A stretch of 64,000 nt of DNA from Octopus vulgaris (Eukaryota), in contig OX597828.1 in the NCBI GenBank assembly GCA_951406725.2, positions 42,780,001-42,844,000 of the forward strand, written 5' to 3'. Of this stretch, positions 3,298 to 36,860 are shown piece after piece (the stretch's first letter is position 1; each line of letters starts with the position of its first letter). The translations under genes were made by a program, and so were the position numbers. Below the pieces are notes generated by a model. It made no database searches, had not been told where the DNA came from, and saw only the letters and a program-made list of their open reading frames with translations.

Positions 3298-3828
3298 TAT
3301 ATATATATGCATGTATATATACATATAGATGTAGGTACGTACATATATGTATGTATGCATATATTTTATTTATTAAATTATTATATGACTGAGCGCCCTC
3401 GCGTCGTTTCGTTTCTTTTCTCCAAGTAAGTTTTTATATATAATTATGACGCGAACTCTTTAACCCTTTACTTGACCTTTCCTTCCTTCATGTCTGTCTT
3501 CCTCTTTACCTGTCTCTCTCTTTCTTATTTTTCATTCTTTCTGGTTTCCCTTCCTCTCTATCTCTCTCTCTCTCACTCCTCCTCATCTCTCTCACTGCTG
3601 AGTGGACTACCAACTTTCTTTTGCTCGCAGCTTTCTACAAGTCAACACCGGCTTTTTCTTGCGCTCCGAATTTTTCCATCGTCTAGGCTTAAAAAAAGCC
3701 CTCAATGCTGGTTTCATTATCCTGTTTTTATTCTTTATGTGTACTGTATTTTTATTTGTATTGCTTTTACGTCCTGTTCTTGTCACTTTTTTTCTTTCCT
3801 TGTTTTACCCCTCTGCAAAAGAATTTTA

Positions 3829-3925
3829 ATTCTTTTGCAGGAAGGATTGCTTCGACGGATCGTGTTCTGTCCTTAACTTCGAAACACGCATTGAGTCGAA
3901 CCAGGGACAGCTGATGAAGGGGAAT
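3829..3925 (+). ncRNA. Putative non-circularly permuted (pseudoknotted) hammerhead ribozyme, family 1
   Basis: Core elements GUU (3864-3866), GAAA (3881-3884), CUGAUGA (3911-3917). Stem III cgtgt/acacg, stem I ctgtcc/ggacag, stem II gaag(3841-3844)/cttc(3877-3880), extra helix ttcgac/gtcgaa. Confidence 0.7.
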
Positions 3926-4045
3926 ATTCCTTGTATTGTTTGTCTTGTACTCTGTTTTTTTCGTTGTTAAAAAAAGTCCGTTTCCTAGTTTGTTTTTATG
4001 TTTTCGTTTCTCGTTGTGTTCTACGTTTATTTGTGGTGTCCTCTA

Positions 4046-4155
<110 letters not shown>

Positions 4156-4284
4156 TGTATATATATACATATAGATGTAGGTACGTACATATATGTATGT
4201 ATGTATGTATGCATATATTTTATTTATTAAATTATTATATGACTGAGCGCCCTCGCGTCGTTTCGTTTCTTTTCTCCAAGTAAG

Positions 4285-4323
<39 letters not shown>

Positions 4324-8312: not shown

Positions 8313-8515
8313 TTGTGTGTCTGTTTGTCCCCCCACCTATCGCTTGACAACCAATGTTGGTGAGTTTACGTCTCCGTAACTCAGCAGTTCGGCACAGGGG
8401 GCCGAAAGAATAAATACTAGGTTTACAAAGAATAAGTCCTTCGACTAAAGGCGGTCTTCCAACAAGGCTGCAGTGAAATAAGTGAAACATGTAAAAGATA
8501 AAAAAAAAAAAAAAA
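7871..8515 (+). mobile_element. SINE family A, full length, with a hammerhead-bearing insert in its internal (TA)n
   Basis: tRNA-like head (partly duplicated), CORE-like gcaagtgt segment, internal microsatellite, conserved 3' half; foreign segment at about 8066-8275. Confidence 0.85.
8134..8169 (+). ncRNA. Minimal type I hammerhead-like motif with variant core CUGUUGA
   Basis: cttt-CTGTTGA-a-gagc(gtag)gctc-GAAACGTA-aaag: stems I and II pair, stem III is the palindrome ACGT. Confidence 0.55.
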
Positions 8516-8520
8516 TATAT

Positions 8521-8612
8521 GTGCATATTCTAAAACTGGAACGATACAGAGAAGCTTAGCGTGGCCCCTGTGCTAGGATGACACGCAAATTCGTGAAGCG
8601 CTCCATATTTTT
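8521..8612 (+). pseudogene. U6: U6 snRNA pseudogene, 5'-truncated
   Basis: Matches canonical U6 from about nt 17 to the 3' oligo-T, including the ACAGAGA box and AGC triad; about 9 mismatches in 92 nt by eye; 5' stem-loop absent. Confidence 0.93.
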
Positions 8613-15911: not shown

Positions 15912-17000
15912 ACTGTACTGTTTTACACACATAAACGAAGAAGTGCTGAAAAGCTCCCGGCTCTAAGGGTATCGCGCATGGCCTGGTTGGCAGTCTCACC
16001 TTCCAAGTTCTTTTACAAGGGCTTAGAAAACCCGAAGGACTGCTGCAATAAGTGTGTGAACCTGAGAGGAGGAACATGTTGGATAAAATCATAATTAACT
16101 GATCCTCCTGTATTTTCATTTACCCAAACTGTACTGTTTCACCCACATAAACGAAGAAGTGCTGAAAAGCTCCCGGCTCTAAGGGTATCGCGATCGGCCT
16201 GGTTGGCAGTCTCACCTTCCAAGTTCTTTTACAAGGGCTTAGAAAACCCGAAGGACTGCTGCAATAAGTGTGTGAACCTGAGAGGAGGAACATGTTGGAT
16301 AAAATCATAATTAACTGATCCTCCTGTATTTTCATTTACCCAAACTGTACTGTTTCACCCACATAAACGAAGAAGTGCTGAAAAGTTCCCGGCTCTAAGG
16401 GTATCGCGCATGGCCTGGTTGGCAGTCTCACCTTCCAAGTTCTTTTACAAGGGCTTAGAAAACCCGAAGGACTGCTGCAATAAGTGTGTGAACCTGAGAG
16501 GAGGAACATGTTGGATAAAATCATAATTAACTGATCCTCCTGTATTTTCATTTACCCAAACTGTACTGTTTCACCCACATAAACGAAGAAGTGCTGAAAA
16601 GCTCCCGGCTCTAAGGGTATCGCGATCGGCCTGGTTGGCAGTCTCACCTTCCAAGTTCTTTTACAAGGGCTTAGAAAACCCGAAGGACTGCTGCAATAAG
16701 TGTGCGAACCTGAGAGGGGGAATATGTTGGATGAAATCATAATTAACTGATCCTCCTGTATTTTCATTTACCCAAACTGTACTGTTTCACCCACATAAAC
16801 GAAGAAGTGCTGAAAAGCTCCCGGCTCTAAGGGTATCGCGCATGGCCTGGTTGGCAGTCTCACCTTCCAAGTTCTTTTACAAGGGCTTAGAAAACCCGAA
16901 GGACTGCTGCAATAAGTGTGCGAACCTGAGAGGAGGAACATGTTGGATGAAATCATAATTAACTGATCCTCCTGTATTTTCATTTACCCAAAAGCCAGGA
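15912..17000 (+). repeat. Tandem array of five 216-bp units derived from a mariner-type MITE
   Basis: Units start at 15912, 16128, 16344, 16560, 16776; + strand reads AWLAVSPSKFFYKGLENPKDCCNKCVNLRG(EYVG*), like a mariner transposase C-terminus; array ends aaagccagga, complementary to the tcccggctct end motif in each unit. Confidence 0.9.
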
Positions 17001-36008: not shown

Positions 36009-36157
36009 CGCCAGCACTATTTCCCATCTTATACTGAGCCTCAAGATAATATAAGTCCATGTATACGTCATTTTGACTTTTGTTGTTTTGTTATTTTTAA
36101 TTTTGGATTTCCTCACACACACACATTCTATGTGTATATATATATATATATATATAT

Positions 36158-36860
36158 AAATGCAAAATGGGACAAGAACGCAAAACATCTAGACAGGTGA
36201 TAGAAAAAGGAGCAACAAAACTTCCAGATAAACGATACAGAGAAAACAAGAACGGTTGATTCCGAGTTTTTTTCATCAGTCGAGTTCCAGATTATCTTCG
36301 CAATTTCGGCTGGTTATACTCGAGATTGCTTCAATCTGGCCAGCCCCAAGGAAAAACTAAGCGAAGATTCCTTAGAAGAAAGCAGCAAATATATAAAAAC
36401 AAGGACTGAAGAAAATCGGAGAATGTTACACAAATACAAATAACAGGACATAAAAACAGGTGTCTTTCGACTAAGGAGGAATTAAATTAAGCTGGCGTGT
36501 GTGAAAATAAAGCCTTGCGGCAGGGATACAGGAGTTCAAGACACAGGGAGGAATATAGATGTTGTATGGACGAATGCCGAACCAAGAAAGAAAGATCAGG
36601 CTTGGCTGAACATCGGCCACGTGGGGAGAGAAGAGAGAGATGTAGAGGCAGAGGGACAGAAGAATTAAGGAGGGTCGAGAAAAAAATGACAGGGACACAG
36701 TGAAGTGAAAAGAGGAGGGAAAGTGAGCAGAAGAGAAGCCAGGGAAATGTGAGAGAGGGTGAATGAAAGAACGAAGAGTGGAATTACAGACGAGAAACTA
36801 AATCTTGAACGCAATATAGCCGTACAAACAGCAGAAAGATGGGGTACTTTACCCCTATAT
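36158..36860 (-). mobile_element. Family-2 non-coding repeat carrying the permuted hammerhead; 3' end abuts (TA)n
   Basis: Homology to 19345-19710, about 19120-19190 and about 58910-59100; no coding capacity; 5' boundary approximate. Confidence 0.7.
36265..36358 (-). ncRNA. Putative non-circularly permuted hammerhead ribozyme, family 2, intact copy
   Basis: Minus strand ggctgg-ccagatt-gaa-gcaat-C-tcgagt-ataa-ccagcc-GAA-attgc-gaagat-aatctgg-a-actcga-CTGATGA; four perfect helices and a complete catalytic core. Confidence 0.8.

Follow-up and report, generated by a model that had tools for sequence, protein, structure and literature searches.

A putative self-cleaving hammerhead with its core split between A9 and G10.1 in Penelope-like repeats of Octopus vulgaris and in Naiad-type elements

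The 64,000-nt stretch of Octopus vulgaris DNA analysed here (hereafter, the window) contains, by sequence inspection of its minus strand, a full hammerhead core whose blocks stand in the order cleavage site > GAAA > CUGANGA. We consider it probable that the core belongs to a self-cleaving hammerhead of a further permuted kind, which resides in the 3' pseudo-LTR of Naiad-type elements and of abundant non-coding Penelope-like repeats. The parts of the fold, their order, the covariation of its stems and its placement in the elements were established in this analysis, and its cleavage and role are predicted. The RNA runs from a closing strand through a hairpin, the 5' strand of stem II, a helix termed P0, the site block, a linker, the GAAA block and the P0 partner to stem I with CUGANGA and a second closing strand. 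In the proposed fold, a double pseudoknot, stems I-III and the core would form an ordinary hammerhead active site, with the linker and P0 holding stems I and II together, while the closing helix and hairpin, stacked on each other, would position A9 beside G10.1 although no covalent bond connects the two.

A sequence-only reading of the window had named these stems, the linker and the core parts, and every one of them is present on the minus strand, to which all coordinates in this paragraph refer. Stem II pairs 36345-36340 with 36313-36308, P0 36339-36333 with 36293-36287, stem III 36329-36325 with 36304-36300, and stem I 36323-36318 with 36285-36280. At the upstream end lies the closing helix 5' strand UUUCUU (36376..36381), whose family partner AAGAAA directly follows A9, and then a hairpin of 8 pairs (36346..36375) whose 3' strand abuts G10.1 and whose loop is 10 nt shorter by deletion in the window copy. 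The 5' strand of stem II (36340..36345, G10.1 = 36345) comes next, having moved upstream of the cleavage-site block, and is followed by the P0 5' strand (36333..36339). Block S (36318..36329) comprises the stem III 3' strand, U16.1 (36325), C17 (36324) and a stem I strand, with the predicted cut at 36324/36323. It is joined through a 4-nt linker from stem I to stem II (36314..36317; 1-6 nt in other families) to block G (36300..36313), which consists of the stem II 3' strand, C11.1, GAAA (36307-36304) and the stem III 5' strand. The P0 3' strand (36287..36293) and the first half of block C (36273..36285), namely a stem I strand and CUGAUGA (36279-36273, A9 = 36273), complete the core. The last segment is the closing helix 3' strand (36258..36272), where the G of the family AAGAAA has been lost and 2 pairs are left in the conserved register. 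The proposed order NUH > GAAA > CUGANGA, opened between A9 and G10.1, was thus borne out, the chain break resulting from the upstream position of the stem II 5' strand.

The window copy has CUGANGA, GAAA, an NUH triplet in which H is not G, and the pairs G10.1-C11.1 and A15.1-U16.1, and stems I, II and III, backed by covariation (below), adjoin this core as in a hammerhead. Its core, stems and hairpin are intact, and because its closing helix is damaged, it may be weaker than its family relatives. The CUGAUGA of the earlier reading is complete in this copy but is the copy's own variant, since N7 is G in 26 of 31 related copies of the same repeat family (family A).

Standard type I/II/III models had been expected to miss the motif, and Rfam at gathering thresholds indeed gave no match there. 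The sole Rfam match in the window was a U6 snRNA at 8515-8612 (plus strand) with a degenerate 5' stem, probably a pseudogene. The window also holds a 216-nt unit in five tandem copies that are 97% alike (15912-16992). Nested folding of the motif was unremarkable (z = -0.73) and did not reproduce the proposed structure; neither this procedure nor the Rfam search is able to display a double pseudoknot. CUGAUGA alone occurs in the window at chance level (7 versus 9.4). The pattern CGAAA-N20-36-CTGANGA, however, matched twice versus a shuffle mean of 0.22, a count reached by 2 of 100 shuffles, and both matches are full motifs.

The fold is located near the 3' end of a non-coding Penelope-like repeat with a unit of approximately 760 nt, and the window holds a 5'-truncated copy of it, delimited by its match to other copies (36165..36784, minus strand). 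The 3' end of this copy borders a (TA)n tract (36136..36164), the usual insertion target; across the family, a TA/AT run lies at most 24 nt past the 3' anchor in 90 of 100 copies. A DNA search of the 2.8-Gb genome returned 1,436 family A candidates, 40 of which were scored, and a 19-mer from the 3' end of the family had 3,718 genome matches versus 0 for a control. Copies vary at their 5' ends and share a 3' end fixed beside the TA run. Most loci seen are single, dispersed copies; L017 is a head-to-tail dimer with a spacing of 763 nt, tandem, direct and inverted 3' fragments occur in L017, L006 and L024, and short fragments lie upstream at some loci. Tandem and inverted insertions with a (TA)n target have been described for Penelope-like elements in the part of PMC8557442 consulted. 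Family A therefore shows the anatomy of a non-autonomous Penelope-like element, namely 5' truncation, a fixed 3' end, tandem or inverted 3' fragments and a microsatellite target. There is no notable coding frame in its unit. Further, the upstream single ORF with an N-terminal GIY-YIG endonuclease and a C-terminal reverse transcriptase that marks the Naiad clade was not found in family A. Non-LTR retrozymes consist of tandem units that each carry a type I hammerhead; here the fold is not type I and the copies are mostly dispersed.

The fold recurs in families unrelated in sequence. A descriptor search of the window revealed family B on the plus strand at 3808..3922, with closing strands at 3808-3812 and 3918-3922, a hairpin at 3813-3840, G10.1 at 3841, a predicted cut at 3866/3867 after GUU, GAAA at 3881-3884 and CUGAUGA at 3911-3917. 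It lies in a Penelope-like unit at 3340-4285 (plus strand) with copies 93-97% alike. This unit is followed by a TA tract and then by a partial tandem repeat of the unit's 5' part. Family B has 2,619 candidates in the genome, and a third family, found in locus L002, has 2,129. Genome-wide, the pattern CGAAA-N20-36-CTGANGA matched 48,209 times versus 15,726 for the reversed control pattern. Chance arrangement in repeat-rich DNA would agree with the frequency of CUGAUGA in the window and with the unremarkable nested folding; this threefold excess, the fixed spacing, the covariation and the recurrence in other phyla make it an exceedingly improbable explanation. Among copies picked by BLAST rather than by the pattern, the core is complete in 22 of 31 of family A and 30 of 34 of family B, and H17 is never G.

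The position of stem II was evaluated in the first 100 listed pattern matches on contig C1, all of which were fetched. A good site block was present in 44, many of the others being truncated copies or chance matches. A stem II partner of at least 5 bp was found 15-30 nt upstream of the site in 31 of the 44, versus 0, 0, 0, 1, 2 and 1 in six control windows. These counts bear on the alternative of an ordinary type-SGC hammerhead (blocks in the order S > G > C), in which stem II would form from the bases directly after CUGANGA and the upstream match would be incidental or part of a switch. Some room for it is left by a weak 4-bp stem II with G-U pairs that could form downstream at 12 of the 44 sites, mainly in families B and C. 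A downstream stem II of at least 5 bp, however, was seen at only 1 of the 44 sites, and these bases have the closing strand as their pairing partner. In families B and C, the upstream stem II is stronger than the downstream alternative. In families A and D, no downstream duplex forms (+0.9 kcal/mol versus -10.1 and -8.1 upstream), and the ordinary fold was rejected for these two families. Overall, we regard this alternative as very unlikely.

Covariation was assessed in two hand-picked sets. In 13 representatives, a stem's own strands pair at 61/65, 63/65 and 51/52 positions for stems II, I and III, respectively, and swapped strands pair at 0.51, 0.62 and 0.48. Aligning 29 family-A-type copies revealed two-sided changes at 19 of 37 pairs, a number matched by 0 of 500 shuffles; own partners are 89.7% paired versus 22-53% for slid partners. 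As the sets were chosen for intactness and their sequences are related, the shuffle counts are not probabilities, and the result indicates consistency rather than significance. On covariation and core conservation over genomic copies, the check that the earlier reading had proposed, the copies show covarying stems and a largely kept core. Its view of a non-circularly permuted fold in a mobile repeat also agrees with the covariation across unrelated families, the Penelope-like anatomy and a pile-up of 5' junctions described below.

Two helices are added at the chain break. A hairpin of at least 7 pairs ending at G10.1 is present in 32 of 39 copies, compared with 1 of 39 when the anchor was moved by 13 nt; shifts of 5 and 9 nt, which stay inside the same hairpin, gave 22 and 9. 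A closing helix of at least 5 bp that starts just past A9 and ends beside the hairpin was found in 21 of 39 copies and at shifted positions in at most 2 of 39. It is short or absent in the other 18, the window copy among them, which counts against the proposed fold. We infer that the hairpin and the closing helix stack end to end, holding A9 beside G10.1. The sequence-only reading had suggested instead that a terminal helix agttttt/aaaaact joins the two ends. This helix can form in the window copy, but it overlaps the conserved hairpin and was rejected as a conserved helix, since across families it is the hairpin that abuts G10.1 and the closing helix that follows A9.

P0 appears to correspond in position to the helix through which stems I and II interact in type-SGC hammerheads. 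Only 3 and 6 nt on the two strands separate it from the far end of stem III, which would mean a long reach in a monomer. Such short links are present in all families, and a similar problem of reach is raised in the consulted part of PMC10085705. If the active site were assembled instead from strands exchanged between neighbouring copies of a tandem transcript, the long reach would be removed. Canonical Penelope-like hammerheads are thought to cut as dimers (PMC6765202, in the part consulted), and tandem copies exist (L017). The hammerheads of dimer type described there have a very short stem III and a palindromic loop, whereas stem III here has 4-5 bp and is closed by P0; furthermore, most loci seen are single copies, and a single unit is enough to close every conserved helix. 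We consider a dimer an unlikely form of the active RNA.

The statement in the earlier reading that natural non-circularly permuted hammerheads had been published was correct. Eckert et al. 2023 (PMC10085705) confirmed three types, SGC, CSG and GCS, by in vitro experiments, and the consulted part of their text assumes that the block of stem I, CUGAnGA and stem II cannot be interrupted and reports no non-circular permutation in the genomes of known organisms, bar one GCS candidate. Comparison with these published forms placed the window order outside the six types of that scheme as given there, because block C is interrupted. Types I, II and III are circular permutations of C > G > S, and the order here is S > G > C. 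Type SGC (HRIMA-1 in PMC10085705) is among the nearest published forms: it has the same S > G > C order, a full core, a pseudoknot and a short linker between stems I and II, and an extra helix, here P0, joins the other sides of both stems. It differs in that block C is here split at A9/G10.1, the stem II 5' strand comes first, two helices are added at the break and P0 is tied to stem III on both strands. An unbroken block C with the stem II strand directly after CUGAnGA, as in type SGC, is not found here. The split form would putatively work like an SGC hammerhead, and it is not a member of that type because it is opened inside block C. Moreover, the type-SGC RNAs came from metatranscriptomes and, according to the same part of the source, from no known organism's genome, whereas the split form occurs in an animal genome and in retroelements. 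The two metagenomic examples of type CSG in PMC10085705 share the ring order of the blocks; as presented there, their blocks are unbroken and the ring is opened between G and C, whereas the split form is opened inside C.

Type I hammerheads of canonical Penelope-like elements and non-LTR retrozymes resemble the split form in their setting, as both lie in the 3' pseudo-LTR of a Penelope-like unit with tandem and truncated copies (PMC6765202 and 10.64898/2026.07.22.740005, in the parts consulted), and they likely share the same job. By contrast, canonical Penelope-like elements carry circularly permuted forms with a minimal stem III, for which cleavage as dimers is proposed in the consulted part of PMC6765202, while the split form has six helices and no three-way junction in linear order. 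The consulted part of the 2026 preprint on animal retrozymes (10.64898/2026.07.22.740005) uses type I models only, and that of PMC13725137 mentions hammerhead variants with additional helices. The split-core fold was not found in the consulted parts of PMC3088659, PMC10162972 and PMC13725137, and in the open literature searched we came across no description of the split order or of a permuted Naiad hammerhead. By violating a stated assumption, the fold would widen the published permutation scheme of the best-studied small ribozyme. Non-circular permutations, known from rare metatranscriptome RNAs, would then also be present in animal genomes at high copy number. The replacement of the A9-G10.1 link by two stacked helices would also provide a natural insertion point for RNA engineering.

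Craig et al. 2021 (PMC8557442) reported Naiads to be without canonical hammerheads, and the consulted part of their study carries the flags 'HHR_core' and 'HHR_half_core' without explaining them. Of the 54 consensus sequences in File S5 of PMC8557442, 53 were inspected by eye over their final 330-450 characters. By this reading, 10 of the 53, from five phyla, end in the full architecture with its hairpin and closing helix: the ctenophore Bfor, with a stem I of only 2 bp; the cnidarians 3_Chem, Amil, Aacu (two mismatches), Anas and 2_Movir; the acanthocephalan Plae; the crustacean EuTe; and the octopus sequences Obim and Ovul, with a weak closing helix. The Esco Naiad appears to have a partial architecture. 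Six nematode Naiads (Naiad-1/2/3_Nbra, Hcon, Hpol and Asuum) seem to end in an unbroken type-CSG hammerhead. No such fold was seen by eye in the last 330-450 characters of the remaining Naiads inspected. In the same part of File S5, bivalve and hemichordate Naiads have a different, conserved non-hammerhead motif directly after the ORF, and the Ptep, Smim and Dst Naiads have CUGANGA after a C run with GAAA upstream, possibly further permutations.

The octopus Naiad 3' motif corresponds to family D in this genome, with 554 exact 14-mer matches versus 14. In 3 of 17 loci, the family D motif stands 784-965 nt behind a decayed Naiad reverse transcriptase, of which the C-terminus was examined, which places the fold on the element's sense strand. 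Among the matches listed (185 upstream flanks), a sense Naiad reverse transcriptase was found upstream only of family D, and the search for an autonomous partner of families A, B and C found none; a single search pattern for the Naiad ORF gave no match. Family A shares with Naiads the (TA)n target and the tandem and inverted insertions described in the consulted part of PMC8557442, and the octopus Naiad 3' end bears the fold. Family A differs in being non-coding, and its descent from Naiads is conjectural. We lean towards the broader view that Naiads kept hammerheads, non-circularly permuted across animals: split-core, a helical junction replacing the A9-G10.1 bond, in a ctenophore, cnidarians, an acanthocephalan, a crustacean and cephalopods, and of type CSG in nematodes. 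The split form would then be active in vivo and present in tens of thousands of copies in this genome, with its core opened inside the catalytic block in nature. This would offer a testable answer to why Naiads seemed hammerhead-free while thriving.

Neptune-like elements, which have a C-terminal GIY-YIG domain and 781-codon frames, were considered as carriers and rejected, as the 1.5 kb behind the ORF held no sense fold in 30 loci; the fold copies near them are antisense insertions. At L097 and L102, Neptune-like elements, which have many intact frames of 781 codons, terminate behind the ORF in a short hairpin motif resembling a type I hammerhead whose core is altered.

By cutting after NUH, the RNA would release the element RNA from longer transcripts, whether tandem or read-through. 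Starting from the 3' TA tract, reverse transcription would run off the cut end, which would leave an excess of short copies, and on uncut or religated RNA it would copy further. Among 100 family A copies anchored at the 3' end outside the ribozyme, 18 5' junctions fall at 0 to +20 relative to the predicted cut, 29 at +21 to +147 and 2 at -48 to -1. The rate at 0 to +20 is 5.1 times that of +21 to +147 and 17 times that of -48 to -1 (p<1e-6). No other 21-nt window in the scan exceeds it, and among those without overlap the best reaches approximately one third of this rate. The peak lies 5-14 nt past the predicted cut, in the linker and the stem II 3' strand, with three junctions at +20; an exact start at the predicted cut was seen in only 1 of the 100 copies, which counts against cleavage as the source. 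In a second set, anchored on the pattern across families, 21 of 63 assigned matches end at +1 to +15, several assignments being made on references approximately 70% alike and at least 2 copies being intact. A 5' breakpoint test anchored on (TA)n, swamped by overlapping matches and TA microhomology, gave no clear pile-up exactly at the cut. Assembled contigs, uncertain in kind, from four public sequencing runs yielded no signal on RNA ends or strand.

The junction pile-up fits cleavage in vivo, and the offset of 5-14 nt would need trimming or microhomology joining. The pile-up could also arise if the fold were real and had no useful cutting rate, acting as a binding or stalling signal for the reverse transcriptase, with the peak reflecting stalling in stem II. 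The location of most junctions at +5 to +14 and of three at +20, rather than at the cut, would suit such a signal. Nevertheless, stem I, P0 and the hairpin are equally strong and give no peak, and no junction falls at -1 to -7 in the 100 copies. TA microhomology does not account for the peak either, since the interval from -120 to -49 has a similar TA/AT density (0.17 versus 0.185) and yet one fifth of the junction rate. In addition, the catalytic core has been kept while every stem was replaced, in this genome and in five phyla. A non-cutting signal thus seems quite unlikely, and self-cleavage is preferred. At L309, L339 and L376, element sequence from nearby is briefly duplicated at junctions just past the predicted cut, which looks as if it came from template jumps at a template end.
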